Part shown: positions 11,667-41,755 of the stretch, piece after piece
Position numbering within the stretch: the first letter of the stretch is position 1
Layout: each line of letters opens with the position of its first letter
Source: Candidatus Latescibacterota bacterium
GTDB taxonomy: Bacteria; Latescibacterota; UBA2968; GCA-2709665
NCBI GenBank assembly: GCA_963662665.2
Contig: CAXXJS010000005.1
Coordinates: 1 to 64,000 of the forward strand
Direction of reading: 5' to 3'
DNA: 64,000 nucleotides
Program-made: the position numbers and the translations under genes
Notes under the pieces: generated by a model
Databases searched by the model: none
Told to the model about the DNA's origin: nothing
Seen by the model: the letters and a program-made list of their open reading frames with translations, nothing else

Positions 11667-11687
11667 TTGTCGCAAGTATTGCGACAA
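11667..11687. promoter_or_regulatory. Palindromic operator TTGTCGCA-N5-TGCGACAA (putative WYL-regulator site)
   Basis: Perfect 8-bp arms in AT-rich DNA upstream of the 11542 operon; identical arms at 41734-41754. Confidence 0.7.
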
Positions 11688-11870
11688 CATTAAATTTCGC
11701 AATAAGACTTTAACGTAAAATGGGTGCTGCCGTCAGCCGGAAACAGTGAGAAGAGAAGCCGGTGTGAAGGTGGGGCGGACATTCCTGTCTGCCCTTTTCA
11801 ATGTCCTTCTGTCGAGATGCAGGCGGAAAGAAGGCGCGCGATTTTCTACGCGGGGGCCCACTATCCGCAG

Positions 11871-12953
11871 TCAAGCCAGGTTGGCCACGCGGCGCTCGGC
11901 GGCGGCGATGTCGGCGACGCCGTCAAGCACGGTGATCTCCAGATGGAACTCGCGGGTGGCGCCGGGTTCCAGGTATTCCAGGAAGTTGTGCGTGCGGTTC
12001 CAGGCACGCCCGAGGGGCGAACAGTTGCCCGGCTCCACGCCGGTCACGTAGCCGGCGGCGGCGAAGTGCTGCCACTGGGTGACCAGCGGCAGTTCGGCAG
12101 CCGGCATGCGCCACTGCAGGCCGTACGTCAGCCGGTCGTTAATCAACGCAACGGTCACGTTGCCGTTGGCGTCCGGTACCGGCCGGTGTACGTAAACGTC
12201 GTCGCCGGCGGCCGGCTCCGGGGCGCGCGCCCGCTCGTACACAGCCGCATCGACCGGGCGGTCCTGCAGCCACTCGGTACTTAGCCGGCTGTTGACCAGA
12301 AACCGGGTACCCTCGTCGAGCAGGGGGAAGCCGGGATTGGTGTGGTACACCAGCATCAACGGCGAGCGCAACCCGCCGAGGTTCTCCACGCAGTCGTGGA
12401 TGCTGATGCGGCGCTCGCCCAGCGTCGTGGTGATTTCGCGGCGCAGTTCGAGCGTCGTGCCAAGTGCCACCGCTTCGCGCATGGTGCCGGCGATGCGCAG
12501 GCGGTATTCGTCTCCCAGCCAGTCTCCTCCGGCGCTAACCTCGCGCGCTGGAATTGCGGACAGCCGCCCGTGCAGGCCCAACTCCTCGCCTTCCTCCTCA
12601 GGGTCGGTTTCGGGATGGCCGACGAAGGTCATGCCGCAACTGATCAGCAGGCCGCCGAAGAAACTGCGCATCCAGCCGTAGCCGACGGACTCGAAGAATG
12701 CCGGGCCAACGTCCCCCGTGGCGCTGCGGAAACACAGCGACCGCCCCCGGTAGGTTGCGGCAGCGATGTCGAGCGCCCGTCCGGGCAGCACAGAAAAGCT
12801 CAGTCCGGAGGCGTTGCTCACCTCGATCAATCCGGCGCCGCGCTCATTGCCCTCGGTCAACTCCGCACGGCGAACAGCCGCAAGCTGGCTCATGTCGCCG
12901 ACCAACTGCAGTAGCTCCGCCTTCGTGTAGCCGCGTCCAAACAGATGCGCCAT
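11871..12953 (-). CDS. Aldose 1-epimerase family protein (DUF4432-like)
   Basis: VLPGRALDIA, FFGGLLISCG, LGLHGR, YHTNPGFPLL, GVEPGN motifs; GAGG RBS. Confidence 0.85.
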   Translation of the reverse strand: MAHLFGRGYTKAELLQLVGDMSQLAAVRRAELTEGNERGAGLIEVSNASGLSFSVLPGRALDIAAATYRGRSLCFRSATGDVGPAFFESVGYGWMRSFFGGLLISCGMTFVGHPETDPEEEGEELGLHGRLSAIPAREVSAGGDWLGDEYRLRIAGTMREAVALGTTLELRREITTTLGERRISIHDCVENLGGLRSPLMLVYHTNPGFPLLDEGTRFLVNSRLSTEWLQDRPVDAAVYERARAPEPAAGDDVYVHRPVPDANGNVTVALINDRLTYGLQWRMPAAELPLVTQWQHFAAAGYVTGVEPGNCSPLGRAWNRTHNFLEYLEPGATREFHLEITVLDGVADIAAAERRVANLA

Positions 12954-13088
12954 GCTCTCTCCTCTCGTGGAAGGTGCGGCGCCCGGTACACGAGTTCGTT
13001 CACGATTCAGTTCCGGTTCTTTTGGAAAATGTACAGCGATTGTCGTGCGTACCCAGTGCACCTCGACCATTCGGTTTCTTGGTGATGT

Positions 13089-13709
13089 TTAAGCAACCTC
13101 GAACAGACAGCGCAGCCACTCGTTTGTGGTATCGCGGATGCCATCCACGTCAACTACGAACTCCTGCCCCCTGCCACCAGAATCGACATGGATCCATGGG
13201 GCGTTGCGCCGACACAATTTGACTCTACGACTAATCCGACTGCAACCGTCAGCCGGCCAAAACCAATCAGGTAGCCTCCAGTACGACCGCAGACAGGGTG
13301 CGCCTTTTTCGACTTCCTCCGGAGCGGTCAAGACGATACGGCTGTCTTTTTTCTGAAATACGCCGCCGCCCGGCAAGTCTCTTCCTCCAATATTGAGCCT
13401 CTGTGTTGACACGTAGACCGTGTTGTTTGGTCGTTTGCGAAGACTGCGGTGCCGTTTCTTAAATGAACCGTGGAGATGTGGGTGCTCCGAAAGCCACGGA
13501 TACTCGCACAGAGCGCGGTCGTAGTCTTCATCAGTCCGAAGCGATAAAACCTCATGAACCTGAAGCCAGCCAAAAAGCATATGAACATTCGGTGCGGATC
13601 TGACGTAACGCCAACTTTCGCTACTATCTCTCTCGACTCGACGGAACGTTCCGAAGAAAAGGAACAGGTCACCCTGACGGACACCATGATCGGCCAGCCG
13701 TTGGTTGCG
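13089..13709 (-). pseudogene. 5'-truncated Nmad3-family gene
   Basis: GDLFLFFGTFR, HMLFGWLQV, HPHL, WRLPDWF and GRGQEFV match the intact paralog at 17095-17949; the N-terminus is replaced by intron DNA. Confidence 0.75.
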
Positions 13710-13948
13710 CGTGTTGCCCCCTTTCCCGAGATCCAGACGGGTCGGCTCCCCCATTACGTCTATCGAGGCCTACTCAACGTTCACTCACGTTACGGCCTGC
13801 ACACTCGCGGAGTCGCCTCATGAACCCCTACACCGGAGGCTTCGGCGATTTCATTGCCAACATTCCTGCTCCGATTTCTACCGACTCCAACGACATCTGT
13901 CGGGTTGGAATGTCGCCCACTGGAGTTCCACACCGGTTCAAGACGCAC
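13710..13948 (-). mobile_element. Group II intron 5' fragment (domain I only, no RT gene)
   Basis: Minus strand starts GTGCG at 13948 and contains gcgagtgtgcaggccgtaacgtgagtgaacgttgagtaggcctcga...gagccgacccg, recognised as bacterial group II intron domain I. Confidence 0.7.
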
Positions 13949-14152
13949 TGATATCCTGTAGCTGTTTTTCAGGGACGGAAAGGTGGTTGCTGAGTGATCG
14001 ACCAACTGCGACCCCGATACACAATCTACATTAGGTGTGTCATTGCTCCACATTTCCAGCCCCTGCCGAATCCATACCACAACGCAACGCAAGTATCCGC
14101 GCATCTTCACCCCGGTTTGGCGAACATCCGTTCGTGGCGTCCCGGAACGTGG

Positions 14153-15016
14153 TCAGCCGCTATCGGCGTTCGTCTTCACTTCGATGATCAGGCGGCAGTG
14201 GTCGCTTGGTCCCCATTCGCGGACTTCGTTCATCGCCCGCACCCTGACCCTATCGTGGAATCCGCGCGACGCAAATGCATAGTCCAGTTGATTCACAGCC
14301 GATCCCGGCCAATCTCCTTTATTCTTGTACGTCGGCACGTTTTTCGTAACGCTCGGAACGTCGTCCGGCGCTCTTCTTGGGGATCGACCGAAGGGAACCT
14401 GGGGGCCCAGGAATTCCAGTCCAAGCGCCTTCATGCGATTCCAGACCGTTCGCTCGCGTTCCGGCAATGACAGTCGTGTGCCGGTCGCGCCGTAGAACAT
14501 ATTCAGATCGCCTGCCGCCAGAATCCTGTGTCTGGACTGGTCGGTGTGACCGACGAGAGTCGATCGGTCAGAAATGATTCGATGTGCCGACGCATCCGAG
14601 TAACCGACGCTCCATGGGCTTTCCGTAGACGGATGCGGCTTAAGCCAGCGCGCGTACATTGAGACAGCGACGAAGGCCTCATCTTCACTCTCGCAAGGGA
14701 TCACCCTCGCGGCGGCAATGGTCCCGATTCCGCTGACGCCGATATCGTTGGCACCGAGGTCACTGATCGGCGGCACCTGTCGGTAATGCTCGACTTTGAT
14801 TCGTTCGGACAACCTCACGACCAGCGGCCAGCGGTCGTAAAGCTGGCGGTTCCAAAACACCGTATCATCGTATTCGACCGGATGTACAAGGTCGCTTGGC
14901 GGACCGGCCGCTTCCTGCAAGAGCGCCAGGTCGGCCTCTCCGTTTTTCGCCATCCGCACCAGTTCGCGCCACGGCTATGGACGTTTATCGATGTTCCAGC
15001 TCACCACCTTGATCAT
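14153..15016 (-). pseudogene. Endonuclease/exonuclease/phosphatase (EEP) family gene with in-frame TAG at codon 14
   Basis: MIKVVSWNIDKRP*PWRE...LALLQEA...AAGDLN...QLDYAFAS...GPSDHC; TAG at 14975-14977. Confidence 0.8.
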
Positions 15017-15221
15017 ACGATCTCCTTCGTTTGCTTCAGAGCGTCCATTTCAATACCAATGGATCTGTCGAAAATAAAATCGTGCTGACCAAGTGGCGGG
15101 TGTGAAAAAAAAAGTATCCCCATCCGGAGGATGGGGATTAAGGCTTCTCTTCTAAGGGGCGGCATACATTGCGCACTGAAATTCAGACCCGGAGACTGGT
15201 GTTTAATCGGCACTTACCAAG

Positions 15222-15800
15222 CTATGATAGGCTATTTTTCCCATCCGAACCATGCCTTAGATAGTCGTACCCACGAAGATTGGCCGTCTTCTTGACGATT
15301 TTTTCAATTATTGATAGACGGGTTGACCTGGATGGCAAATGAATTCCAAGCTCGCCCGCGATCTGTCTAAGTGTTGAAACATTGTACTCCTGTTTATCCG
15401 CCAACTTACGCTCTACATCTTGAGGTGGCAACCCCTTTAACTCCTCCGCTATTGCTTTTACTTGCTGGCGGCCCTGTGCCGTATAGGCGTTGCGCTGAGA
15501 CTTCCTCGTTGCCTTACTGTCCGGCGAGAGGCCGAGAACATTCGAAAGCAACGGGTCAGACTCAGCCACGCGAACACAATCCCTTATTGTCTCTATAGTT
15601 GACGTGACACCCTGTACGTCTTCTCCCGCAGGAAGCGACCTCAACCTGATCCGGAAATCTTGAAGAAACTTTATCAAGGCTTCCAATTCGCGATCAAGGC
15701 GCAGTTTTGTTTCGTCAGCAGGCAACGCATCCACCAAATCGGACAGCTTGCTGAGGAAGCTGTCCAATTTCCTTCCTGTCAACTTTACTGAATCGCTCAT
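15222..15800 (-). CDS. Hypothetical protein downstream of ParA
   Basis: 192-aa ORF starting 2 nt after the parA stop; C-terminal LRQIAGELGI...SIIEKI resembles a Rho-N/SAP-like helical motif. Confidence 0.7.
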   Translation of the reverse strand: MSDSVKLTGRKLDSFLSKLSDLVDALPADETKLRLDRELEALIKFLQDFRIRLRSLPAGEDVQGVTSTIETIRDCVRVAESDPLLSNVLGLSPDSKATRKSQRNAYTAQGRQQVKAIAEELKGLPPQDVERKLADKQEYNVSTLRQIAGELGIHLPSRSTRLSIIEKIVKKTANLRGYDYLRHGSDGKNSLS

Positions 15801-15802
15801 CT

Positions 15803-16741
15803 TTAGAACATCTCCAACATTTCGTCTACGATTCTCGGATACTCCTGCTTGCCCGCAGCTCGTCTGGCATTGTCGGAATCATGCCGCCAAATTGGAAGGC
15901 TGTTTTCGGCGGCTTCAGTGTATCCGATCAACTCGGTTGTATGGGTATCGAAGCATTTGCCTGTACCTAACGTCGATCGGACCTCCGTCATCTTACTAGC
16001 ATGGGCCGTCGTTTGCATTGCACCGCCGATTCGTACCCGCACGAAAAGAACGGCGCCCAACTCCGCAACACGGTGTCCATCAGGCTGTCGGCCGGCCAGG
16101 ACGGCTGCGGAACTTACGGTCTCGCCGATATTCTTAACTTTTCCGATAAGGATGTTCAAGCCAATGGTAGAAAGATGATCTGGTATCGCAGTCACGATAT
16201 AATAATGACTCGCAACAAGCGCATTCTGCGTCATCAGATAGAGGTTTGGTGGACAGTCTATGAGAATGTAATCGTACATGTCTCGAACTTCATCGATGGT
16301 TTTAACAAGAAAATCTCGATCACGCAAAAACTGTCGTGCGTTCTTCCTTAACATCTCCATACTCGGATATGCGCCTGCGATTTGGCCACCGCCAATATCC
16401 TCACCGATCAGATCTATATCGCACGGGATCAAATCAACTCGCGGATGCCGTCGACTGTCCCGTAAACGAATTGGGTTCTCCCACCGATATCTCTTCACGT
16501 CTATAGGATTCCCGTCCAAGTATCTCTTATACATGGTGGCAATCGTTCCGACTCTGTCTTTGCGCCGTTGCCAGTCTTCGATAGAGGCGCACAGAAAAGT
16601 CAGGTTCGTCTGTGGATCGATATCGATCAGTAAGACTCTCTTGCTTTTACGTTCAGCCAACCAACACCCGACATGGTAGGCTGACGTTGTCTTTGCGACA
16701 CCACCCTTGTAATTGATAAACGCGAAAACCTTTGCTGCCAC
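15803..16741 (-). CDS. ParA/Soj-family ATPase
   Basis: NYKGGVAKTT, LLIDIDPQTNLT, DYILIDCPPNL. Confidence 0.9.
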   Translation of the reverse strand: MAAKVFAFINYKGGVAKTTSAYHVGCWLAERKSKRVLLIDIDPQTNLTFLCASIEDWQRRKDRVGTIATMYKRYLDGNPIDVKRYRWENPIRLRDSRRHPRVDLIPCDIDLIGEDIGGGQIAGAYPSMEMLRKNARQFLRDRDFLVKTIDEVRDMYDYILIDCPPNLYLMTQNALVASHYYIVTAIPDHLSTIGLNILIGKVKNIGETVSSAAVLAGRQPDGHRVAELGAVLFVRVRIGGAMQTTAHASKMTEVRSTLGTGKCFDTHTTELIGYTEAAENSLPIWRHDSDNARRAAGKQEYPRIVDEMLEMF

Positions 16742-16822
16742 TATTTATGTCCCCCAAGCAGACAACCACATAATGCGAATTTCAGCTATGTTCAGAGCAG
16801 AAGATCGATGCTACACGCCGGT

Positions 16823-17098
16823 TCATCCGGATAGAGTGACAGGCACTCCCAGATAACGGGCAAACCGCAGGAGCACAACGCTTTGACCGGGATTAACTAC
16901 GGGCCAAGTGTCAGCAAGCCGAGAGCGTATCCGTTGGAAGTCTCGTTCAATCACGAGACACCCATTCACGTTTGAGATCTGTGGAGGGCTGTTGACAGAC
17001 TTAACACGACTACCCTTCAAATATATACCATTTAGTGGGCGAAAAGCAACCCCATTTCCCTTTATATCACTTATTCTGATCGAAAGCTGGTCCGTCAA
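16823..17098 (-). CDS. Small hypothetical protein
   Basis: TTG start overlaps the Nmad3 TGA (TTGA); 91 aa. Confidence 0.45.
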   Translation of the reverse strand: MTDQLSIRISDIKGNGVAFRPLNGIYLKGSRVKSVNSPPQISNVNGCLVIERDFQRIRSRLADTWPVVNPGQSVVLLRFARYLGVPVTLSG

Positions 17099-17949
17099 GT
17101 GTCGAACATTTCGCGCAGCCAAACGTTGGCTTCCGGAATACCGTCGGCGTCGAACACGAACTCCTGCCCTCGGCCGACTGTGTTGACGTATGTCCACGGT
17201 TTTCGGCGTCGCCAAAGTTTCTTTTCGTAGTGGTAGCTGAGCACCGGACGACCGCCTGGGGGATAAAACCACAACGGCAGCCTCCATCTGCTGCGATTTG
17301 CCGATCCCGACGCCGTCAACGTGAAACGGTCGCCGTTACCAACGAACAGCCCGGCACCGCTTCGCGCGTTCAGCCCCTTGACGTTGAGCGTGTCTCTCGC
17401 GATATAGACCGTGTTTTTGTCCCACCGCCGATTCAGGTGAGGATGTCCAGCTAACCAAGGGCGTTCGGCGCGTGCGCGCGTGAGATTCTCCCCTACCGGC
17501 ACGGCCACCGCTACCTGGAGCCAACCGAACAGCCTGTGAACGTGAGGAGCGTTTCGGACGTACCGCCACGTGCCCTCGTGCCCCGGTTCGACGGCGCGAA
17601 ACCAACCGAAGTAGAGAAAGAGATCGCCTGGCCCAACACCCTGGTTCTCCAGATGGCTCTGAGCTTTTTCCACCTGCCCGAACGCCGGCCGCCAACCGGG
17701 CAAGCGCTCAAGGGCATCGGCGTTCAGATCAGGATCCAGATGGCACCGGTCCCCTCCCTTTATTCGACGGTTGGACAGACTCTCCACGATTGGACCGAGA
17801 GACTCGCCACGCCATTGTACGTCCCTGAAGCGCGCCGGGCTTCTCTTGTACGGAATGGGTAGAGACAATGCGGTACCGTCCGGAAAAATGGGACTGGGTA
17901 CCCGACCGTTCGCCGAGTCAAATCCCTTTCGACTGAATATGACCTTCAT
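17095..17949 (-). CDS. Nucleotide modification-associated domain 3 (Nmad3) protein
   Basis: MKVIFSRKGFDS...PSPIFPDG.ALSLPIP, HLDPDL, AFGQ, GDLFLYFGWFR, GRGQEFV. Confidence 0.85.
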   Translation of the reverse strand: MKVIFSRKGFDSANGRVPSPIFPDGTALSLPIPYKRSPARFRDVQWRGESLGPIVESLSNRRIKGGDRCHLDPDLNADALERLPGWRPAFGQVEKAQSHLENQGVGPGDLFLYFGWFRAVEPGHEGTWRYVRNAPHVHRLFGWLQVAVAVPVGENLTRARAERPWLAGHPHLNRRWDKNTVYIARDTLNVKGLNARSGAGLFVGNGDRFTLTASGSANRSRWRLPLWFYPPGGRPVLSYHYEKKLWRRRKPWTYVNTVGRGQEFVFDADGIPEANVWLREMFDT

Positions 17950-18695
17950 AGCTTTCCCCCCCTACGACAGCGTGCGGTTTCCCGAAATTGCTGCAAAGTG
18001 AAGAGTCGGCAAAGTCAACAGTTCCATTCCTGTCGCGGTCCCCAACAAGGCATGGAGCGCCATCCGGAGAACAGATCACACTTCGACAAGTGTTTCATCA
18101 ATGTGAATGCTCGCGAAGGGATTCAATCCTTGTTCTGATGGAAGAGTCCCAACGGGCTGCTCCTGTATCTGGACGGCGCGGCCGTAGATCCGGAGTTTCA
18201 ATCCTTGTTCTGATGGAAGAGTCCCAACGGGCTGTTTTCTTTGGTGTCATGTTCGCAGCTACACACTATGTTTCAATCCTTGTTCTGATGGAAGAGTCCC
18301 AACGGGCTTCGGAACAGTACGTCTATGTGTCGTTTGCATTGTGGTTTCAATCCTTGTTCTGATGGAAGAGTCCCAACGGGAGTGCTACTGCGATGCAATC
18401 GAAGATGAGATTTACGACGAATGGTTCGAGTTTCAATCCTTGTTCTGATGGAAGAGTCCCAACGGGTTGGCGCCCTTGATGATCCGGTGGGATGCCTGCA
18501 GGTTAGTTTCAATCCTTGTTCTGATGGAAGAGTCCCAACGGGCCTCGTACGTCGTGGCATTGTTATAGCCCATCCTTTTCGTTTCAATCCTTGTTCTGAT
18601 GGAAGAGTCCCAACGGGCCCTACGTGCCAATTTAGAGTGAGACAACTCCCCCTCCGGGATTAATGTCGTACATTGGGCGGAGAGGAGAGCACGAG

Positions 18696-19163
18696 ATGAG
18701 GTCAAGAGTCGATGTTGGAGACAACGGCAGCAAGGGGTCTCTGGTTGTGGAGGTCCCGCGCGGGACCTCCACAACCACGAGGCCGGATCCGGAGGTGCCG
18801 GCGCGTGCGAAGCGTCGCCGGTTCACTTCGCGGTACAAGCTTCGCATTCTGGAAGAGGCGGAGGCTTGCCGGGCCCCTGGTGAAGTAGGCGCGCTACTGC
18901 GCCGCGAAGGGTTGTATTCCTCGCAGTTGACCCAGTGGCGTCGTGCGCGTCGCGAGGGGTCGCTCAAGGCGCTATCCAAGTCGCGGGGACCCAAGGGACG
19001 TCGCCGCGACGAGGTCGCCGTCGAGAACGAGCAACTGCGCAAGGAAAACGCCCGTTTGCGTCGACGGCTGGAGCAGGCGAACACGATCCTCGAGATCCAA
19101 AAAAAAGCCTCCGAGATCCTGGGCATCCCCCTGAACCGTCCGCCAAGCGACGACGACGTATGA
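18696..19163 (+). CDS. IS3 transposase OrfA
   Basis: KRRRFTSRYKLRIL...LLRREGLYSSQLTQWR; A-run near 19099. Confidence 0.85.
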   Translation: MRSRVDVGDNGSKGSLVVEVPRGTSTTTRPDPEVPARAKRRRFTSRYKLRILEEAEACRAPGEVGALLRREGLYSSQLTQWRRARREGSLKALSKSRGPKGRRRDEVAVENEQLRKENARLRRRLEQANTILEIQKKASEILGIPLNRPPSDDDV

Positions 19164-20173
19164 TGCGTGCGGCAGAACAACTGGCCCCGAAGGTCGGGTT
19201 GGCGGGGGCGTGCCGGGCCTTGGGTGTGGCGCGTGCGTCGGTCCACCGTGCGCGTAAACCATCGCGATGCGGTCCTCGTGGCGCGCGCCCCTCGTCGCCA
19301 CGTGCGCTTTCCCAAACCGAGCGCGCTGCCGTGCTGGACATCCTGCACGAGGAGCGCTTCTCAGACCGGGCCCCAGCGGCAGTCTACGCCGCGTTGCTGG
19401 AGGAAGGACGGTATCTCTGCTCGATCCGCACGATGTATCGGGTACTGCACGACGCAGGGGAGGTGCGCCAGCGGCGACACCAGCGGCGTCATCCACGTCT
19501 CGAACCACCCCGGTTGATGGCCAGTGCGCCCAACCAGGTCTGGACGTGGGATATCACGCGTCTGCCAGGACCCCGCAAGTGGGTGACCTATCCCCTCTAC
19601 GTGGTACTGGATCTGTTCTCCCGCTATGTCGTGGCCTGGATGGTCGCCACAAGGGAGAGCGCCACAAACGCAAAGCGGCTTATTGCCAACGCGTGCCAAA
19701 AGCAGGGCATTCAACCCGAACAGCTGACGCTGCACCAGGACCGCGGCGCACCGATGACGGCCAAGACGTTTTCCCAGTTGCTGATGGATCTCGACATCCT
19801 GGCCAGCTACTCTCGACCCCGCGTTTCCGATGACAACCCGTATTCTGAAAGCCACTTCAAGACGCTCAAATACACGCCATCATACCCCGAGCGCTTCACC
19901 GATCCGCAATAAGCGCGCACCTATTTACAGGCCTTCTTTCCCTGGTACAACACACAACACCGTCACAGCGGCCTGGGCTTACTCACGCCCGACACTGTCC
20001 ACTATGGGTTGACACAGCAGATTCAAGCCGTCAGACAAACGGTGCTGGACCAGGCTTATCATAAACACCCTGAACGATTTGTTAAGGGGCATCCTCGTCC
20101 GCCAAGCGTTCCGGACGAAGTGTGGATAAACCAACCCGCGAATACCATCGAATGCCATCAGTTACTTCACTAA
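19160..20173 (+). pseudogene. IS3 transposase OrfB (DDE) with premature TAA at 19910-19912
   Basis: PNQVWTWDIT, LDLFSRYVV, HQDRG, DNPYSESHFKTLK; frame continues WYNTQHRHSGLGLLTP after the stop. Confidence 0.85.
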
Positions 20174-20534
20174 ATTCCAACGGGCGTTGTCTCATTTCTA
20201 TTGACACGTTCCGGGGTATGATGTTCACGCCGTAGTAGAAGCCCGTCTCGATGTTTCAATCCTTGTTCTGATGGAAGAGTCCCAACGGGCCAACAGGGTG
20301 CAGGCCTGGTCCTCCCCGAACTCGTCTATGTTTCAATCCTTGTTCTGATGGAAGAGTCCCAACGGGAATTCCTCTAATTCATCGCTGTCAAGGTCTCCAT
20401 CGTGTTTCAATCCTTGTTCTGATGGAAGAGTCCCAACGGGGGCTGGCTATCTTCGCCTGCCGGACGGACCCGTCCTGTTTCAATCCTTGTTCTGATGGAA
20501 GAGTCCCAACGGGCATGGGTATCATGAACCATCC

Positions 20535-27883: not shown

Positions 27884-28054
27884 CGCATTTTAGCCATATC
27901 AAATGAAATTCCAACGGTTTAACGAAACTACAGGCGATTCAAAAGCGCAATTTGACAACTCAATTTTGCTCCCAAGCACAGACATTGTCCCCTCCTTTGC
28001 AGAATTGAATGTTCGCAACATCTTAATTATTAATAGATTGTGTCGAGATTGTTG
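27884..28054 (-). promoter_or_regulatory. CRISPR leader
   Basis: AT-rich non-coding stretch between the cas4 stop and the first repeat. Confidence 0.75.
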
Positions 28055-29948: not shown

Positions 29949-29969
29949 TGGAAGTCCTAGGAGATCAGG

Positions 29970-32387: not shown

Positions 32388-33100
32388 ACGGTCCCCTCTT
32401 CCGGTATGTCTAGAAACGCCCATCTGTCCGCATCCGAAGCCTCGACGGGCGTAAACGTAATTGGCCTCCCCTGCACTTCATAGATCAGGCTAATTGATCC
32501 CTCAAAACGGCGATTCCCAAGATGTTCGTACAGAACCCCTCCCACGCGGGCATATTCGTCTTCCTCTTGAGGCCTTAGCCGGGAGATCGCCTTACTCGGA
32601 ACTACAGATACGCAGGTCGTATCCTCGTGCTCTTCTAGCTTCAATGACTTAACTGCGGTATCTGGATAGGCGGCATAAAAAACAGGAAATGTCAAACAAT
32701 ACGCGCTTCCCAGATATGTGTGATAGTGGCTGTGTCCTTCTTGGAGTCGGCTTTCCAGTTCCTCCTGTAAAGGTCCCTGATAATAGACTCGATAATGTGG
32801 ATTCACCACGATCTCAATGGCCGTTGGTCGGTTGAAGTCCGATCCGCCGCCAACCCAGCCCTTTCCAAGCATACTCATTTCGTGTGCTACCGTGCGGACC
32901 GGCCGCAGGAGCCGGATACCACAGCGCGGAGATTCTGGCAGCGACTCAAGGCCGAGAATCGAAGCAATCAGACCGTGAAGTGCCGTCCGCGTGATAAAGG
33001 GGTAGCTAGCGTGCGTTCCGAGGGTATCTGGACGCCGATAATGGGCCAAACCGCTGCGTAATTCAAACGCCAGTACACTCATTTCGGACATATTGGGCAC
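32375..33100 (-). CDS. cas5: Cas5
   Basis: LAHYRRPDT...SYPFITRTALHGLIASILG; TYLGSAYC. Confidence 0.9.
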   Translation of the reverse strand: MPNMSEMSVLAFELRSGLAHYRRPDTLGTHASYPFITRTALHGLIASILGLESLPESPRCGIRLLRPVRTVAHEMSMLGKGWVGGGSDFNRPTAIEIVVNPHYRVYYQGPLQEELESRLQEGHSHYHTYLGSAYCLTFPVFYAAYPDTAVKSLKLEEHEDTTCVSVVPSKAISRLRPQEEDEYARVGGVLYEHLGNRRFEGSISLIYEVQGRPITFTPVEASDADRWAFLDIPEEGTVCLW

Positions 33101-33102
33101 TC

Positions 33103-34071
33103 CTACATGTTCATTGCTTCGCCGGGGAGGTCTCCGATACCTTGAAGTCCAAGGTGTTGCCAGAGTCGAATACGCTCGATTTTTCCCTCGTTTGCATTCA
33201 ACGTCTCAGCCAATCTTTCTACATTCAGCTTAATTTCTACTAGTGAAGACGGAGGTCGTTCTCCCAGCCAAGCATCTCGTCCAGGCTCAATCTGTACCCT
33301 TTCTTCCAGAAACCCGATCCGGTCAAAAGGATCTTTATATTCAACGTGAATTAACAATAAAGGCTGCTGAATCCCCCTCCCGCGCGCCTGTCGGTTGATC
33401 GTACCCTTCCAGAGTCCTTCGAGAAGCACCTCAACATCATCTTCGCTCATCCTAGTATCCCCTGCAATCTGCGCGTTTATCACACCAGGCATGGCGAACG
33501 TAGCAAACGGCAGAGTATAAGTCGTCCAGATCGTACCTTGGCTCTTGCCCTCTTCTTCGCCTTCGTCGGTGATTTCGGTATCCCTTGACGGCATAACGAC
33601 GGTTCCTTGGACGTACTTAGTTTCTACTGGATGAAGTGAGTGTGCCCAACCAAACTGGACGGGACCCACCTGATGAAAGCTCTTCTTTTTCACGCTAAAA
33701 ACCGCCCCAAAAACGCGCATGTCGAAGGCCGAGGTAAGCAACGCATCCCGAAGGTCTTCCGCCTCTTCACGTTCTGCCCTTTCAAGGATTGTTGTTGCCA
33801 GCTTCTCTCTGCCTAGCAACCTGTTTCCATCCGTCCGCTCCTCCCGGCAGAAAACAAACATCGAACTGTTTTCACCGCCGTCTGGGTAGCGAGCCAAAAC
33901 ATAATCCCTCACATCCCGCTTGATACTGACATCCGACAACGAAATCCGCCCGTCTTCCTCACCGAAAATCCGTCGTGCATCGCTGTCGCGCAGGGGATCG
34001 CGATTGGGAATGCCGTCTTTCACGCATTTTACGAAGAGGATTTCGCCGCTTCGAATCGAATTTCCGTTCAT
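33103..34071 (-). CDS. cas7: Cas7 (Csh2/Csd2-like)
   Basis: PNRDP, SDVSIKRDVRDY, FDMRVFGAVF, GPVQFG. Confidence 0.92.
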   Translation of the reverse strand: MNGNSIRSGEILFVKCVKDGIPNRDPLRDSDARRIFGEEDGRISLSDVSIKRDVRDYVLARYPDGGENSSMFVFCREERTDGNRLLGREKLATTILERAEREEAEDLRDALLTSAFDMRVFGAVFSVKKKSFHQVGPVQFGWAHSLHPVETKYVQGTVVMPSRDTEITDEGEEEGKSQGTIWTTYTLPFATFAMPGVINAQIAGDTRMSEDDVEVLLEGLWKGTINRQARGRGIQQPLLLIHVEYKDPFDRIGFLEERVQIEPGRDAWLGERPPSSLVEIKLNVERLAETLNANEGKIERIRLWQHLGLQGIGDLPGEAMNM

Positions 34072-34083
34072 TTTTCATATCTC

Positions 34084-36165
34084 CTATGAGTTTTGTTCAG
34101 ACTGATTTGCCGTCTCGGTCTGTCCTTCGCCTCTGAGTCTGTCGAATCCCTGAAGACTGTGGCCTGCCCAAAAAGACGCCATAAATTCGTCTTTACTTTT
34201 CTCCGTATCCTGCTTTAGACGGTCATATTCCGTAAGAACGACGCCCACTCTCTGGAGAAGATCCACGCCTAGCCTCAGTTTTTCATATCTCGGTACTACT
34301 TCAAAAATCTGTTTGAGTCCTTGTCTCCACACTCTCTCGGGCGTGAGGTCGCTACCAAATGTCAACACCCTCTGCTTGAGGTAATCTTTCTTGGTCACGG
34401 CATAATACTGCCTGCTGAATTGCTGCATTACAGCACCGCAAGCAAAGCCGAGTTCCGCCGAAGATTCAAGCTGTACTTGCTCGACAGGATGCTCGAAAAC
34501 GATTTGAAGCAACTCCTTCCAAGGCCGCATCGCCATATTCTGCTCTCCTTTTGAGAGTTTATGCTGATACTGCGTCCAGAATTCAAGAAATGTCAGGAAA
34601 AAGATCACTTCCTCACGTATTTCATTACGCGAATTTGGGTACCGCGGCGTAATGCTCCGCAGCCGTTCCGCTACATTCCGGATGGGTCGCCGCAGGCCGA
34701 GGGACTGTCGGTGAAGGGCGGCCTGAAGTTGGTCCCACACGTATGGGCCTCCGTATCCTCTCGCTAACATAAAGGGCAAGGTGCGATAACGTGTGTAATA
34801 ATATGCCTTTTGACTTTCACTAGCTTCAGGCAGAAGAACTTGGAGCAGTTGGATAACCATATCAGAAACATGCTTTGCTACCTTCTGCAAGCCAGTTACT
34901 GTAGATGGAATAACATCCTCAATATAGGCGCGGAGATGAATATCACCCCTACCTGGATCTCCTGAGTAATAAATGAGGCTGAGACGGTAATCATCTGTCT
35001 CGACATTCTCAGGCAGAAAGCATTCAAAGCCGGTTACGGAATCTATATGCCTATCTAACATCGAACCCGTTCTTGAAGGCGGCTTGAGCATTGCTTCGAT
35101 ATTTTCCGCGAACTCTTCTCTGACTTCATCATCTTCAAAAACCCGATCCAAGATGGGAAGAAGCAACCCGCTTCCTCGAATCGCCGGGAAGTCGCTTAGA
35201 CTCTTGTGTGCAGTCAGGCGAATACCCTCTCGGTTGGAAACAGGCGAGAAAATTTCTCGGGTTAGTACAGCTTGAACAGATCGAGTAAAGCTTTCAAAAA
35301 GACAGGCTCCGTATACCAGGGCCTTGTAACACTCGGGACAGCTTCCGATGCCTTCGACCATCATCTTTTCGTTACCCCCCTGGGGCAAAGGGCAGGTCCA
35401 CGTAGGCAAATACCAAGGCCAAGACTTGCAGTAGATTGTAACCAAAGGGGCATCTTTCCCACAGAATGTGCAAACTCCTTCACGCTCTCCCTTTTCTGAA
35501 CCCTCCTGTAATTTGGCCTCCCAGAAAAGCTCCAGAACTCGGCTGTGGTCAGGCTGGATGAACTTGCCGGGGAAAAGGTGGCTGTGGCCGATATGGCTTT
35601 CCGAATAATTCCCGCTGTACCTATAGGCTGCTTCTTCCCCCCGCATGTCCGAAAGGATTAGAATGCCTAGCAGCTTGGTTTTTTCGTTGGTTTGAACCTC
35701 TTCCAAAACAGTTCGATGGACCGCGCTTGCCACCTCCTTAATGAGATCGTCGTCGAGTATTAGGGAGGGAGTTTTCTCTAATCGGCCCTTAAGGAAACTG
35801 AATACACCTTCTGATGATTCTCTGAATGCCTTCATGTGAGGATCGTAGCAGGGATAAGCTGCAACACCGTACACACCCTGCGGATGGATGGGATTACCTC
35901 CCTGCGGCAACACAAAAGGGGCTCCCACTGCCCGCTCTCTATCTGGATCAAAATCGGATTTTTTGCCCTCGCTAATTTCCTGTCCCCATACTTGGTAAAA
36001 GGCTGCTAATCCTGTATCATCTGAGATTTCAACTACAATGACGTGACGATAGAAATTTTTTACCTTTTCATTCTGCACATCCGAAATCAACTTCAGGATT
36101 TTCTTAGCATCCATACCACCTTCCAGCAGAGGCCGCCCCATTCTGATTAAATCTTCGACAATCAT
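34084..36165 (-). CDS. cas8b: Type I-B large subunit Cas8b (TM1802/Csh1-like)
   Basis: Lies between cas6 and cas7; 693 aa; CTFCG...CPECY Zn motif; C-terminal helical Cas11-like part (internal MAMRPW start possible). Confidence 0.8.
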   Translation of the reverse strand: MIVEDLIRMGRPLLEGGMDAKKILKLISDVQNEKVKNFYRHVIVVEISDDTGLAAFYQVWGQEISEGKKSDFDPDRERAVGAPFVLPQGGNPIHPQGVYGVAAYPCYDPHMKAFRESSEGVFSFLKGRLEKTPSLILDDDLIKEVASAVHRTVLEEVQTNEKTKLLGILILSDMRGEEAAYRYSGNYSESHIGHSHLFPGKFIQPDHSRVLELFWEAKLQEGSEKGEREGVCTFCGKDAPLVTIYCKSWPWYLPTWTCPLPQGGNEKMMVEGIGSCPECYKALVYGACLFESFTRSVQAVLTREIFSPVSNREGIRLTAHKSLSDFPAIRGSGLLLPILDRVFEDDEVREEFAENIEAMLKPPSRTGSMLDRHIDSVTGFECFLPENVETDDYRLSLIYYSGDPGRGDIHLRAYIEDVIPSTVTGLQKVAKHVSDMVIQLLQVLLPEASESQKAYYYTRYRTLPFMLARGYGGPYVWDQLQAALHRQSLGLRRPIRNVAERLRSITPRYPNSRNEIREEVIFFLTFLEFWTQYQHKLSKGEQNMAMRPWKELLQIVFEHPVEQVQLESSAELGFACGAVMQQFSRQYYAVTKKDYLKQRVLTFGSDLTPERVWRQGLKQIFEVVPRYEKLRLGVDLLQRVGVVLTEYDRLKQDTEKSKDEFMASFWAGHSLQGFDRLRGEGQTETANQSEQNS

Positions 36166-36860
36166 AGCGATCCTCCTGTAGAAATTTTCGCATTCTGGGC
36201 TCGAACGAGAGTACCGAATCCACGCGAAACGGATTTCCCGATTCCTACTCTATCCGGCAAACGGAAGTTTACACTGAATGAGCCCGTAAATCCCTGCATC
36301 GTAATGCCCTTTAGGCGGCTGCTAACCGGACGCAATTTTGAACAGTCAGCCTTTAACTTCAAGGTCACATTGTGCTGAAACGACTTGGCAAAGGAGAGAC
36401 AATTGCCCACAAGAATTCGCTCAAGAAGTCGGAAACGATCTATGGATTTGGGCATCGTGCGAAATCTGTGTTCATTCTCTTGGTTTAGTGCCAGCCACGG
36501 CGACAGAAATCGATATGTCACCATACTCTTAGATTCTCCAATTTCAATCCGTCGTTTTTGAACTATGGATTCCTGAACTGAAAGAGTTTCCAACCCGATT
36601 TGGGCCTGATCTACCTCCAGCCACAACTGAGCCAACAAAGCACTCCCCTCTTCAAGCCCGACTAAAACTGCTTGGCGATTCAGAATTTTGAACTGAATGC
36701 GAGGATAATTGTAAATCAGAGTTCCATCTTCATTATGTTGATGAAGTAAAATATGCTCTGCAAATTCGTTTCCAAAAAAGCCTCGCAACTGTGGAGTCTC
36801 ATTTGGATATAATTCGCGGGTCAACTTTAGATGGTACTCCGTTACGGATAGCTCTCGCAT
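36162..36860 (-). CDS. cas6: CRISPR endoribonuclease Cas6
   Basis: LRGFFG, HQH, YPRIQFK, SPWLALNQEN, G-loop GIGKSVSRGFG. Confidence 0.93.
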   Translation of the reverse strand: MRELSVTEYHLKLTRELYPNETPQLRGFFGNEFAEHILLHQHNEDGTLIYNYPRIQFKILNRQAVLVGLEEGSALLAQLWLEVDQAQIGLETLSVQESIVQKRRIEIGESKSMVTYRFLSPWLALNQENEHRFRTMPKSIDRFRLLERILVGNCLSFAKSFQHNVTLKLKADCSKLRPVSSRLKGITMQGFTGSFSVNFRLPDRVGIGKSVSRGFGTLVRAQNAKISTGGSL

Positions 36861-37710
36861 CCATCTGTCCTTGTTATCGCGGATGATCCCTGTTCATTCT
36901 TGAAACCTTGACGTGATAACCGCTTGGTTTCAGTACCCCCCAGTCGGGCTCATCCACCACCTTGATCAAACTGCCATTTTTCTCTCTTTCTTCCAGTCAG
37001 TATGCCTTCAGCAGTTTTTTCTTAACAGGGCGGTCGTGGTGCCTAAAGTCATCAGCCGAAAGCGATCTGGATTCGGCATTGATGCCCGTGCCTTTTGCAG
37101 CGACATCCGCCCAAGATACCACAAACGACGTCACCGTGTTGTCAGACCCAACAGGAACAGAATCACCAGCACCAATATGAGGTATTCGATCGCGACCAAT
37201 CTCCCAGAGTGCGTCGGATCTGCGTTTTCCCGGTTGGTCCTACAGGTGTTGCATAATGCGACGCTTGCCGCTCGTCAAGTCGGGACGTGGCGCAACGGAT
37301 CTGGAGCGGCCTATCTGTTTCACCCTTTCATTTGGCGGCGCCGGCCACACGATATCTCAAGAAAGTTGCTTTTCTCTGGCCAACTGGTTACATTCTTTTC
37401 AGCGACCAGAATGGGCCGGCGTCAGCCGACCCGGGACAATGTCCCTGGCCGCTATTTTTTTGCACCATACTTCGGCAAACTCGCCCTCCTGCGGGCGAAA
37501 GTGAACGGACCGAGTTGGTCCTTGCTTTTGGGAAGCTCGGTCCGCAAGTGTCGCCGAATGCAACATCAATACGGGAAAGGCCGCACGATCGCCCACTTCA
37601 CGTCTCCGCCAGACTTCTCCCTCTCATCATCTCAGGTGAGATCACGTCGGCCGCGATCTTCTGTTCAATAACTCCGGCATCCATCCTCGTGTCCACCTGA
37701 ATCTCCGCGG

Positions 37711-38316: not shown

Positions 38317-38440
38317 GGTCTTTTCTCCCGGCTGTGGATTTGTGGTGTGTCTTCGGGACAACGGTCGCGTCGTTTGCGATCCTGGGAGTCAAACCGGCGC
38401 GACAAAGGCAGGATGCCCTCGGTCCGGGGGAATGGCAGCG

Positions 38441-38560
38441 GTCAGTGGTCGGTGGCAAGTGATCGGCAAGAACAGCAAAAGTCAAAAAACCAATCGGTTG
38501 ACGTCTGCGCCTGGACATGGACGGCCATCGTCTGCGCGGCGAGGGCAGAATGCCCTCGGT
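38441..38560. repeat. Dispersed ~120-130-bp intergenic repeat (copies also at ~41800-41890, ~41903-42032, ~44661-44788)
   Basis: Shared blocks cagtggtc...gtgatc, aaaaccaatcggttgacgtc and gagggcag..atgccctcggtcc. Confidence 0.75.
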
Positions 38561-38617
38561 CCCGGGAATTCGGACCAGCCGTCGGCAATCACGGGTCAAT
38601 CAAGGGCGAATGGCCGA

Positions 38618-39268: not shown

Positions 39269-39897
39269 TCAGTTGCGATGTGCATGTATATGCATGATAG
39301 GGAATTTTTGTTGAATTATCTCTGAATTAATAGGCTATTTTGTTGATTTTTTGGTGAAAAATGGTGAATTTTGCGCCAGTGAGGCCGAGGTTGGCGACGG
39401 AAGCTGAAATCCTCAGCCCTCTATCGAAATGCGGTTCAGACAATCAGCGGGAAGAAGAACGGCGGTAAGGGAGGAGAGGAGGAAACTTCTGCTGGCTTCG
39501 CGGCTGCCACGCGGTGGAAACGGCGCGGCGAGGGCAAGTATGCCCTCGGTCAGGGGAGACGGAAGCAGCTTACAGCCGGCAGAGGTCAACCAAAGACGAA
39601 AAGCAGATCAATCTACATCAGCATTTCATTTGCACGGATCAACAAAGGCGCGATGCGGGCGGGACGCCCGCGCTCCCAGGGGGAGCCAGTACCCCAAACC
39701 TCACGCTGGTGTCTCCAATGTGCGGCGACCGGCCGGTTGCCCCTGCGATCTCCGTGCATGAATCGGCCTACAGTCGCCAGTAGCCGGCATCTATCAGTCG
39801 GCCTGCCGGAGTGGAATTCGGTTGCCGATCTGTCTGTTATAATTTAAAATGAATCTCCGATGGGATTCACCATATTCTACCTCACTGAATCCAAGGA

Positions 39898-40215
39898 GTG
39901 TTCCCGATCAAGCCTTCCGTGCCGTTTGACAAACACCATTTCGATTTCCTCAGTAATGCGGAACCCGCTCGCGCCTACCTCAAGTGTCCTGTCCCAAAAA
40001 TACCTCACCATTCTTCCGCCGATTCTTCCCGTCTCGCTACGTTGGGCCGACCTGCCCAGGTCGGAGGCGCCTGCGAGCCGGGCGACTCGACGGCCGAATT
40101 CAGGCAACTTATTTCTGGGACAGAACACTAGGTGGCGCTTGAGGAATACGACAGGGATCACGACAGGGCGGTCCTTCTGCTTGCGCTCGAAGACGTCGCA
40201 TTGGCACGTAATTGA
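39898..40215 (+). pseudogene. HI1420-like addiction-module antitoxin fragment split by a MITE
   Basis: FLSNAEPARAYLK, insertion, then VALEEYDRDHDRAVLLLALEDVALARN*; HTH C-terminus absent. Confidence 0.6.
39982..40131. mobile_element. MITE-like non-autonomous element
   Basis: Terminal IR agtgtcctgtcccaaaaata / tatttctgggacagaacact; internal hairpin ccgacctg-cc-caggtcgg. Confidence 0.7.
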
Positions 40216-40227
40216 AAGGAGTTACCC

Positions 40228-40428
40228 ATGCTCAGCACTACTTTAGGGATAGTCAAGGACGGCAGAATCGAAACTCTGGAAAGCGTCCGTTTGCCCGAAG
40301 GAAAAAGGGTATTGGTAACGATCTTGCCCGATGACGATACGTTCTGGCAGGAAGCCAGCCAGGAAAGCCTGAAGCAGATTTGGAACAATGATGAGGACGA
40401 TATTTATGTCAGATTACTTGACGAATGA
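40228..40428 (+). CDS. Small antitoxin-like protein
   Basis: AAGGAG RBS; GIVKDGRIE...LPEGKRVLVTIL...SLKQIWNNDEDDIY; overlaps the toxin gene. Confidence 0.7.
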   Translation: MLSTTLGIVKDGRIETLESVRLPEGKRVLVTILPDDDTFWQEASQESLKQIWNNDEDDIYVRLLDE

Positions 40429-40714
40429 TATCGTACTCGTCCGATATCCGTTTTCTGACTCGCAGATTTCCAAAGTGCGTCCGGCCATTATTGTGAGTGC
40501 GCCGCACATGTCTCACGATGTATTCATTGTCCCGCTGACCAGCAGAACAGCGACTCTCCTTCCTGGCGAGTTTGTGCTCGAGAATTGGAAGGTATCGGGA
40601 CTCAATGTCACATCTGCCGTCAAGCGAGGCAAATATACGATTCATCAACGGTTGGTTCTGAAGAAAGTTGGATGCCTCACACAAAGCGATCAAATGACGT
40701 TGATTGGATCTTAG
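40406..40714 (+). CDS. PemK/MazF-family toxin (possibly truncated at the C-terminus)
   Basis: DIVLVRYPFSD...KVRPAIIVS...IVPLTS...GLNVTS. Confidence 0.85.
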   Translation: MSDYLTNDIVLVRYPFSDSQISKVRPAIIVSAPHMSHDVFIVPLTSRTATLLPGEFVLENWKVSGLNVTSAVKRGKYTIHQRLVLKKVGCLTQSDQMTLIGS

Positions 40715-40730
40715 AGAGATTGGCTGAACC

Positions 40731-41690
40731 CTACGTAGATTCCTTTTCATAGACTCTCCCCGCCTCAATCATATCCTCCGCGATCTCCTGTCTCAGTGCC
40801 TCCGGCGCGAGGACCTGGCAATCCGGACCCCAGCTTCGGATCCAGGGCTTCATCTCGAGCGTATGTTTCACCCTGAGCCGCATCCTGCAGCCTCCCCCCG
40901 GCTCGTCCGTCACCTCCACCACGCCCGGCCAGTCCGATTCGCGCACGCGGTAGGAGACCTTTTCTGAAAACCGAAGCGCCACGTCCACAACCTCGTCACC
41001 GCCCATGATACCCCACGAATGCTGCAGAAAATCGTAAGGATCGAATCCGTCCCGTACAACAATCCCACTCTCCATCAGCGCCGCCCGCTCGATACGTTCC
41101 ACTTTGAACTCTCTAATGTCCTGCCGCAAATGATCGTATCCGATGACGTAACAGGCGTACCCCACGGGTGACGGCTCGATGAAGTAGGGGTCGACGTTGC
41201 GTTCGGTCGTTTCCCCGGTCTGTGGATTGTGATAGGTCAGACGCACCTGCCTGCGTTCGGACCAGGCGCGCGTGAGGGTTTCCAGAACGCGAATATGTTC
41301 GCGGTCGGGCCTGCGTTTGTCTGCTACCGCCGCGGTTCGATTAATGTGTTCGCCAATGGATTCCGGCATTGCGATTGCGAGCTTCTCCAGGGCCGACACC
41401 ACGTGCGGATTGTGTTCGTCGCTGTGCGCGGAGAGCAGACGCGCGGCCAGATAGAGCGCCAGGGCTTCGTGCAGATTCACGCGGACGGTGGTCAGATACC
41501 GGTCTTTCAGGACACCGAACCGGCCGTTATCCTCCCAAATCGGCGACCCCGCCTCTCCAAGCGACTGAATGTCCCGGTACACCGTGCTTCGATGCACGCC
41601 GAATCGCGCGGCGATATCGGTCGCTCTCTTTCCGCCCGGGGATCGATAGAGAAACGTCTCAATCGCATTGAGCCGCGCCGCGCGGCTCAT
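40731..41690 (-). CDS. WYL-domain transcriptional regulator (HTH-WYL-WCX, PafB/C-like)
   Basis: HTH IAARFGVHRSTVYRDIQSL; WYL core VDPY...YVIGYDHLRQDIREFKVERI; WCX WIRSWGPDCQVLAPEALR. Confidence 0.93.
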   Translation of the reverse strand: MSRAARLNAIETFLYRSPGGKRATDIAARFGVHRSTVYRDIQSLGEAGSPIWEDNGRFGVLKDRYLTTVRVNLHEALALYLAARLLSAHSDEHNPHVVSALEKLAIAMPESIGEHINRTAAVADKRRPDREHIRVLETLTRAWSERRQVRLTYHNPQTGETTERNVDPYFIEPSPVGYACYVIGYDHLRQDIREFKVERIERAALMESGIVVRDGFDPYDFLQHSWGIMGGDEVVDVALRFSEKVSYRVRESDWPGVVEVTDEPGGGCRMRLRVKHTLEMKPWIRSWGPDCQVLAPEALRQEIAEDMIEAGRVYEKEST

Positions 41691-41732
41691 CGTTCGCTCC
41701 ATTTGGAATCCTCCGCGTAAACGTAAACAGGG

Positions 41733-41755
41733 ATTGTCGCATCTATTGCGACAAT
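41733..41755. promoter_or_regulatory. Palindromic operator upstream of the WYL gene
   Basis: ATTGTCGCA-TCTAT-TGCGACAAT with 9-bp perfect arms. Confidence 0.75.

Follow-up and report, generated by a model that had tools for sequence, protein, structure and literature searches.

WYL regulators are emerging as a common alarm switch of bacterial defense islands. To our knowledge, few WYL operators and very few regulons have been defined, and we know of none in uncultured lineages like the one studied here. In a 64,000-nucleotide stretch of a Candidatus Latescibacterota genome (contig CAXXJS010000005.1, positions 1 to 64,000; hereafter the window), the same 21-bp palindrome stands before a WYL regulator gene and, 30 kb away, before an operon that begins with a gene for a 183-amino-acid (183-aa) protein and ends in a mini-array of degenerate CRISPR repeats. 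Most likely, as judged from the DNA sequence, the shared palindrome places both the WYL gene and the repeat-ending operon under the WYL regulator.

Among the described systems closest to this locus, BrxR is a repressor that recognizes inverted repeats whose halves are separated by a 5-bp spacer, in the promoter of its own gene and in a second box of its island, and it is expected to bind as a dimer, according to the account in PMC9122601. CapW and BrxR are described as repressors that are released by single-stranded DNA (ssDNA) (PMC13622015), and the residues of the arginine motif in the WYL pocket are reported to contact ssDNA in studied relatives (PMC10693628). Two other WYL regulators are described as activators. 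PafBC recognizes the motif tGTCgg(N10)tA(N3)T and contacts positions -28 to -23, a -26 element, at promoters without a -35 box (PMC8635444), and SiwR acts from a 19-bp palindrome between -10 and -35 (PMC10693628). A WYL regulator linked to cas genes, Sll7009 of Synechocystis, is cited in the BrxR study (PMC9122601).

The two predicted operators of the window lie at 41734-41754 in the WYL gene's own promoter (copy 1, TTGTCGCATCTATTGCGACAA, that is, TTGTCGCA-tctat-TGCGACAA) and at 11667-11687 in the promoter of the 183-aa gene operon (copy 2, TTGTCGCAAGTATTGCGACAA, that is, TTGTCGCA-agtat-TGCGACAA). Each consists of two perfectly complementary arms of 8 bases around a 5-nt center. The copies agree in 19 of 21 bases, including all 16 arm bases, and differ only at two of the five center bases, which confirms the coordinates and the identity given in a preliminary description of this DNA. 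The genes relevant to both sites are all on the minus strand; 31 nt separate copy 1 from the WYL ATG at 41702, and 125 nt separate copy 2 from the ATG of the 183-aa gene at 11542. The exact pattern TTGTCGCA-N5-TGCGACAA has two matches in the window, and none of 100 dinucleotide-preserving shuffles yielded any. When up to three mismatches were allowed, there were still two matches, with 0.30 expected and six of 100 shuffles reaching two. The half-site TTGTCGCA occurs five times in the window, four times inside the two palindromes. No third operator was found in the window at up to three mismatches, and relaxed patterns returned chance-level matches only. In agreement with the earlier remark that cas6 has no full copy upstream, the best match in the cas6 promoter region (36861-37200) had 7 mismatches of 16. 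No operator was found at the three CRISPR leader regions either, with 6 of 16 mismatches at best; across the cas6 promoter, the cas8 start, the three leaders, and the regions upstream of the DUF4432 and Nmad3 genes, the best matches had 5 to 7 mismatches of 16. A half-site-like TTGTCGCG near 38399, considered as an extra operator, was rejected because it forms no dyad.

Relatives of the locus came from a scan of genome contigs with the 183-aa protein, which gave 33 loci (L001 onward), nine close and 24 distant; these were scanned for the palindrome at up to three mismatches, and their genes were placed by tblastn. The 183-aa gene is immediately preceded by the palindrome in the window and in six of the nine closest loci (L001, L002, L003, L005, L006, and L020). 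The palindrome is missing from this position in L004 and L008, and in L007 it stands 820 nt upstream of the gene, with a chimeric fragment flanked by repeats in between. Intact WYL orthologs occur in L001 (90% identity) and L005 (86%), with operators at L001 6296 and L005 4066, and in all three intact WYL genes, counting that of the window, the palindrome is placed 31 nt before the ATG. Further palindromes were found in L003, before a 183-aa gene that is truncated, and in L007, before an ABC ATPase gene and before a DUF4432 gene flanked by repeats. None was found in the 24 more distant loci at this threshold, and with two copies in 64 kb and none in these loci the palindrome does not appear as a widespread repeat. 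The WYL gene is reduced to fragments in L004 (1484-1900) and L020 (2631-2753 and 3857-4006); in front of the 183-aa gene, L004 has no palindrome left either, whereas L020 retains one with two mismatches.

The similarity between the two sites continues downstream on the minus strand, beyond what had been described before, into a hexamer and a 24-nt block. On this strand, each palindrome is followed by exactly 8 nt and then by a -10-like TAnnnT hexamer, TACGTT at 41720-41725 in the WYL promoter and TATGTT at 11653-11658 in the promoter of the 183-aa operon. There is no TTGACA-like hexamer 16–18 nt upstream of either TAnnnT, because the palindrome fills the space of the -35 box, and a scan for sigma-70 promoters called no canonical promoter at either site. 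In the window and its relatives, TAnnnT occurs at the 8-nt spacing on the gene side of 12 of 14 sites and on the opposite side of none of the 14. Between sites from different contexts, identity is 0.71 in the hexamer, 0.41 in the center, 0.31 in the 8-nt gap, and 0.31–0.35 in the flanks; it is 0.86–0.88 in the arms, but the arms were the search criterion. All 15 left arms contain GTCGC, and 14 of the 15 right arms contain CGAC; the 5-nt spacer varies freely. The arms are thus kept as sequence, without compensatory changes, which is the pattern of a protein site and not of an RNA stem.

The regulator gene (40731-41702, minus strand) encodes 323 amino acids with HTH_11, WYL, and WCX domains (Pfam 1.4e-07, 3.2e-18, and 7.4e-17, respectively), the domain set of the helix-turn-helix (HTH)-WYL-WCX class that includes YafY, PafBC, BrxR, CapW, and DriD. 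The protein aligns over its full length with PafBC (6sj9), its best solved relative (E=3.2e-12); other solved WYL-domain chains match at E of about 1e-5 to 1e-6, with low identity. The pocket motif is intact, with R197-x-F199-K200-x-x-R203 aligned to the R-x-F-R-x-x-R of PafB and PafC. Among the PADLOC profiles, cas-associated WYL models match at about 1e-36, and the Cas3c model matches over model positions 2-318 with 1.7e-84. A MazF/PemK-like toxin gene (40388-40714), part of a plus-strand unit at 39860-40714 with a possible antitoxin open reading frame (ORF) upstream, is convergent with the WYL gene, whose 3' end it faces; this unit is absent from L001.

A near-identical palindrome accompanies a WYL gene in a second phylum. 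A tblastn search of plasmids with the WYL protein gave 31 records, the best of which was pHAU01 of Herpetosiphon aurantiacus (Chloroflexota), whose WYL protein Haur_5075 is 43% identical to that of the window. The palindrome of pHAU01, TTGTCGCG-ttagt-CACGACAA, is located at 8631-8651 of the plasmid locus (L034) and is the only exact match to TTGTCG-N9-CGACAA in 19 kb of the plasmid. It is followed by 8 nt, the hexamer TAGCAT, a 75-aa HTH_11 ORF (L034 8692-8919, plus strand, unannotated), the WYL gene, and a type I-B operon (Cst1, DevR/Cas7, Cas5, Cas3, Cas1, Cas2, and Cas4). The recognition helices of the two WYL proteins read VHRSTVYRDIQ in the window and VHRSRIYHDLQ in Herpetosiphon. The Herpetosiphon locus has no homolog of the 183-aa protein or of the 62-aa ORF that follows it in the operon, which leaves WYL as the sole gene common to all these palindrome contexts. 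More distant WYL homologs of Thermus, Allomeiothermus, and Deinococcus (27–33% identity) are encoded beside or fused with cas3, or beside BREX or McrBC. The palindrome was not found upstream of five such WYL loci, where CRISPR repeats and GC-rich stems were the only dyads found; its absence there is as expected of diverged specificity.

We consider it probable that the palindrome is the operator of the WYL regulator encoded at 40731-41702, which would control both promoters as a dimer in response to a nucleic-acid signal. A WYL dimer would bind both arms of the dyad. Copy 1 would drive the WYL gene itself and provide autoregulation, and copy 2 would drive the 183-aa gene, the degenerate repeat R0, the 62-aa ORF, and the R1–R3 mini-array up to the terminator. 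Both promoters would switch together when the WYL domain detects a nucleic acid such as ssDNA as its signal. If the hexamer is the -10 element, the gene-proximal arm would span about -28 to -21 relative to the predicted transcription start; PafBC and SiwR touch the DNA in this region when they activate promoters without a -35 box, and ligand-dependent activation is therefore rated about as likely as repression by occlusion of the BrxR/CapW type. Membership of the small-protein/mini-array operon in the WYL regulon, as first proposed, is the best reading of sites that occur at all three intact WYL orthologs, in six of the nine closest 183-aa loci, and in Herpetosiphon.

Several observations weigh against this assignment. 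The conservation of the arms is partly built in, since the sites were found by arm matching, and many of the 15 sites share descent: three are orthologous WYL promoters and six are homologous promoters of the L002–L020 group, one of which, in L003, precedes a gene fragment. In five loci with a palindrome, no intact WYL gene lies within 10 kb (L002, L003, L006, and L007, and L020 with fragments only). L007 carries three sites within 20 kb with no WYL gene in reach, two of them before the unrelated DUF4432 and ABC ATPase genes, and the element is therefore not limited to WYL and 183-aa genes. In Herpetosiphon, the separate 75-aa HTH protein could be the palindrome binder.

The alternative that survives best, though we regard it as unlikely, is that the palindrome is the box of another transcription factor encoded elsewhere, perhaps a LexA-like one specific to this lineage or another stress regulator, whose regulon contains both the WYL gene and the 183-aa operon. 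The three L007 sites fit such a factor, as do the near-intact palindrome that persists in L020 though the neighboring WYL gene is fragmented and the small HTH protein encoded right after the palindrome in Herpetosiphon. Against it, the WYL gene alone is common to the palindrome contexts of two phyla, the distance of 31 nt to the start is fixed in all three WYL orthologs, and both the recognition helix and the half-site have been conserved although the WYL proteins are only 43% identical. Moreover, no lexA or other regulator gene lies alongside the sites in the window, neither lexA nor recA is present in the window or the loci, and the palindrome is unlike any LexA box that we know of.

The second copy of the promoter carries a trace of its origin. 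A 24-nt block at 41711-41688, comprising the ribosome-binding site and codons 1–5 of the WYL gene, is repeated at 11640-11617 with 22 of 24 bases identical. This leader copy (11617-11640, minus strand) is non-coding, with TGA directly after the ATG at 11619. Because the palindrome, the hexamer, and the 24-nt block all recur, it is the promoter, the operator, and the start of the WYL transcript that were copied. The 5' leader at 11543-11629 (minus strand) derives from the 3' end of a Peptidase_S58 gene, as seen when the upstream regions were aligned by eye; a full Peptidase_S58 gene (8642-9997, 3.3e-112) lies directly upstream of the 183-aa gene in L008, and L007 has a fragment only. The similarity to the WYL 5' end stops, and that to the peptidase 3' end begins, at a shared CGAACGATG, a junction that is consistent with recombination at microhomology. 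The second copy would have arisen when the WYL promoter and the first 25 transcribed bases were copied onto the peptidase-gene remnant upstream of the 183-aa gene. The promoter-gene junction differs among the window with L001, the L002–L020 group, and L007, indicating that the promoter was recruited or kept in several arrangements. The different junction of the L002–L020 group would mean that the cassette arrived at, or was rearranged before, the 183-aa gene more than once. Near these promoters we also noted a dispersed intergenic repeat family with a core GACGTCAACCGATTGG, a T run, and then GCTGAC-rich sequence. Its copies lie at 38407-38566, 39521-39556, 41755-42040 (two in tandem), and 44663-44788 of the window and at 3092-3196 and 5790-6268 of L001, often, but not always, just upstream of palindromic promoters.

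Somewhat less probable than the box of another factor is that the shared sequence is a relic of promoter duplication, or a dispersed intergenic repeat with an outward promoter, that serves no dedicated regulator. The extension of similarity into the WYL leader and its first codons does show a copying event, and the GACGTCAACCGATTGG repeat directly adjoins the palindrome in the WYL promoter and in several promoters of the 183-aa gene. However, the palindrome is absent at the repeat copies 38407-38566, 39521-39556, 44663-44788, and L001 3092-3196, and conversely the palindrome at 11667 and that of Herpetosiphon stand without the repeat. Identity is nearly complete in the arms but falls to 0.31–0.41 in the spacer, the 8-nt gap, and the flanks, and drift is not expected to give perfect dyad symmetry. 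Very improbable is a role of the palindrome as an RNA hairpin, be it a terminator or attenuator of an upstream gene or a 5' leader stem. Folding energies of about -11 kcal/mol are predicted for the two copies (z = -3.4 and -5.2), and a terminator scan flagged the 11667 copy on the plus strand. Neither copy, however, is followed by a minus-strand U run, no plus-strand gene ends there, and the arms are conserved as sequence without compensatory changes; with the hexamer as the -10 element, transcription would start downstream of the palindrome. The terminator reading was rejected on these grounds.

With the palindrome taken as a WYL operator, the arrangement can be set against the described systems. 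It is like that of BrxR of the pEFER BREX/BrxU island, which has the same HTH-WYL-WCX architecture and an autoregulatory inverted repeat with a 5-bp spacer, with a related second box (R-BOX2) at another promoter of the island (PMC9122601). Unlike the BrxR arms, which are described as 11 bp long and located downstream of the predicted -10, where binding represses by blocking, the arms here are 8 bp long and upstream of the hexamer. The predicted operator of the window covers the -35 and spacer zone, where it may act by occlusion, with a geometry that differs from that of pEFER BrxR. In contrast to the BrxR island, the second target here is no recognized defense system. The predicted promoters may resemble the mycobacterial PafBC and SiwR promoters described under the term 'sigma adaptation', which have a canonical tA(N3)T -10 element, no -35 box, and a regulator contact at about -26 (PMC8635444, PMC10693628), and the half-site core tGTCg resembles the tGTCgg of PafBC. 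PafBC, however, is described to act as a heterodimer on a single half-site, placed 10 nt from the -10 element, whereas a full dyad with an 8-nt gap is found here, in a different lineage. The full dyad and its 8-nt gap suggest a homodimer. The protein shares its domain set, the WYL arginine motif, and a defense-island context with regulators of the CapW and BrxR type (PMC13622015), although its identity to them is low. Its likeness to cas-linked WYL regulators consists in the 43% identity and shared palindrome with Haur_5075 and in the 27–33% identity to the cas3-adjacent or fused forms of Thermus and Deinococcus. Unlike such regulators, the WYL gene of the window stands outside the cas operon, 3.9 kb from cas6 with opposite-strand genes between, and its partner operon is kept in relatives without nearby cas genes. 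A WYL autoregulator with a second operator is of a known kind; what is unusual here is the cassette without a -35 box and the repeat-punctuated target.

The operon under copy 2 starts with the palindrome and the 125-nt leader, followed by the 183-aa gene, R0, and the 62-aa ORF; then come R1 to R3, with spacers of 35 nt (R1–R2) and 36 nt (R2–R3) between them, and finally a hairpin and its U run. All of these are on the minus strand. The 183-aa gene (P0001, 10991-11542) encodes a protein with a Cys-rich, invariant N-terminus and a HEAT-like C-terminus. It has no match in Pfam or PADLOC, and the Atlas gave hypothetical or HEAT-like clusters only. Its 1416 homologs form a chromosomal family, usually without cas context, in which the extreme N-terminus MPNGGSDCCGTCWFN and residues C36, C51, and H54 are invariant, suggesting a metal site. 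For the AlphaFold model, with a predicted local distance difference test score (pLDDT) of 76, no fold match was found in the PDB at E<=0.001; only the C-terminal 76 aa resemble alpha-repeat proteins. In distant genomes, the gene is found beside McrBC, GmrSD, Schlafen/AlbA_2, MazF, ADP-ribosylglycohydrolase, or one-carbon metabolism genes. A mobile or anti-CRISPR-associated (Aca) origin of the operon was considered and rejected, as the 183-aa protein matches none of 50,697 phage and 72,556 plasmid records; as for an Aca operator, the operon has no aca-like gene and the 183-aa family is made up of 1416 chromosomal homologs. The degenerate type I-B repeat R0 (10901-10937; 9 mismatches of 37 to the array repeat) ends 5 nt before the ATG of the 62-aa ORF (10707-10895), which forms nine protein clusters and has tblastn copies in L001 and L004–L007. 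The mini-array (10512-10693) comprises R1 (10657-10693), R2 (10585-10621), and R3 (10512-10548), with 5, 11, and 7 mismatches of 37, respectively, and is nearly identical in L001. The terminator-like hairpin and U run at 10475-10500 close the operon (centroid -12.5 and minimum free energy -18 kcal/mol, z = -2.19).

Such repeats punctuate transcripts beyond the window. In the window and its relatives, there are 24 repeat-like 37-mers (up to 12 mismatches), all in gene orientation; identity to the array repeat is 85% over the 3' 24 nt, the part proximal to Cas6b, and 63% over the 5' 13 nt. Several of them end 2–5 nt before the next ATG, that of the 62-aa ORF in the window, L001, L004, L005, and L006 and that of a DUF6361 gene in L005. 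They enclose protein-coding ORFs and not just short spacers (10512-10937 in the window; L001, L004–L007, and L020). Genes separated in this way are the 183-aa gene and the 62-aa ORF; relatives add DUF4432, DUF6361, and nuclease-family genes. The first spacer of the mini-array is recognizably conserved in L003 and L005. A comparable layout, in which short conserved 'spacers' outside true arrays are flanked by degenerate copies of the resident type I repeat, is the mark of CreTA, CreR, and regulatory mini-arrays (PMC10120712). In such systems, the spacer pairs in part, through a seed of at least 10 nt with a PAM, with the promoter of a toxin or cas gene of the locus. Unlike in the CreTA and CreR systems, no spacer target beyond chance is found in the 64 kb, the repeats also flank ORFs, and the promoter is of the WYL type. 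For both spacers and the segment after R3, sliding and exact k-mer matches in the window were not above shuffled controls: full-length matches reached at best 21–22 of 35–36, the shuffled level, and the sole 12-mer match was in a coding region outside the seed. No spacer target was found at the cas6, WYL, and 183-aa promoters. With no target in the window, a guide of the CreTA or CreR type is not supported here.

We call the link to type I-B systems indirect because it rests on the degenerate I-B repeats that punctuate the operon. Further ties are that this WYL subfamily heads the Herpetosiphon I-B cas operon and that it matches the cas-associated WYL profiles. The repeat-punctuated messages suggest action of Cas6b or Cascade on them. 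More tentatively, and in our estimate with rather low probability, the WYL regulator may control a 'coding CRISPR-like array', in which cleavage by Cas6b or loading of Cascade would remove or sequester ribosome-binding sites, and output would depend both on the nucleic-acid alarm sensed by WYL and on how well the I-B system is working. In a narrow search of the literature, we found no description of such a repeat-punctuated coding arrangement.

The 30 kb between the two sites hold a CRISPR-Cas I-B block (17968-38627) with three array pieces, insertion sequence (IS) elements, cas4-cas2-cas1-cas3-cas5-cas7-cas8b-cas6b, and two ORFs. The type I-B set at 28055-36860 is complete (cas6b at 36162-36860, cas8b, cas7, cas5, cas3, cas1, cas2, and cas4), and the 37-nt repeat has 37 copies in array pieces at 18120-18617, 20253-20513, and 25971-27883, separated by transposase genes. 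It appears to be one array (18120-27883) broken in three by IS elements of the rve, DDE_3, and DDE_Tnp_1 types and an IstB/Mu-transposase pair. By blastn, positions 1-7330 of L001 correspond to 47949-40720 of the window in four segments at 81–90% identity, 8374-10852 to 13173-10691, and 13827-20549 to 10679-3957; L001 has 3.7 kb between the WYL gene and the operon. In L001, L004, L005, and L020, the WYL gene (fragments in L004 and L020) and the operon lie 3–6 kb apart with no cas genes between them, and in the latter three loci the synteny jumps from about 38628 to about 17967 of the window; a UDG-like gene is retained in these three, and Nmad3 and ParA-like genes also in L004 and L020. No cas gene was matched by tblastn in any of the 33 loci. 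Since the block is absent between the same neighbors in relatives, the CRISPR-Cas/IS block is an insertion or a deletion between ancestral neighbors. The regulator and the operon would be these neighbors, with the I-B locus between them only in this genome. By this comparison, the pairing of WYL gene and operon appears independent of the CRISPR-Cas block and their 30-kb separation secondary, and the block would be context, outside the regulon as far as the motif shows. The preliminary description had also read the two sites as a regulatory layer on the local type I-B system across 30 kb. That part is not supported: the block is absent in L001, L004, L005, and L020, no operator is present at the cas6 promoter or the array leaders, and the 33 loci are without a cas match.

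Between the operon and the block, the minus strand at 13089-17949 carries a full Nmad3-domain gene and a second one with the C-terminal part only, a ParA-like AAA_31 ATPase gene, and an Exo_endo_phos gene, a conserved set that is also found in L004 and L020. A fragment of a group II intron (D1-D4, Rfam RF02003, 67.7 bits) lies at 13785-13922 on the minus strand between the short Nmad3 and the Exo_endo_phos genes; it is the sole Rfam match in the whole window, and no intron-encoded protein was noted. At 206-883, a 342-nt unit occurs twice in tandem with 82% identity.

The locus offers a precise candidate operator and a promoter architecture that are conserved across two phyla, together with a second candidate target operon for the regulator and a clear evolutionary trace of a promoter and operator copied onto a new gene. 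If the promoter depends on an activator, control like the 'sigma adaptation' of mycobacterial promoters would extend beyond Actinobacteria. The locus also provides a testable link between a WYL switch and CRISPR-repeat-punctuated transcripts. If the operon does act as a coding array, it would be a protein-coding relative of the CreTA-type guards of CRISPR-Cas, and, with the same operator heading a type I-B operon in Chloroflexota, this WYL subfamily would be a dedicated component of I-B circuits.

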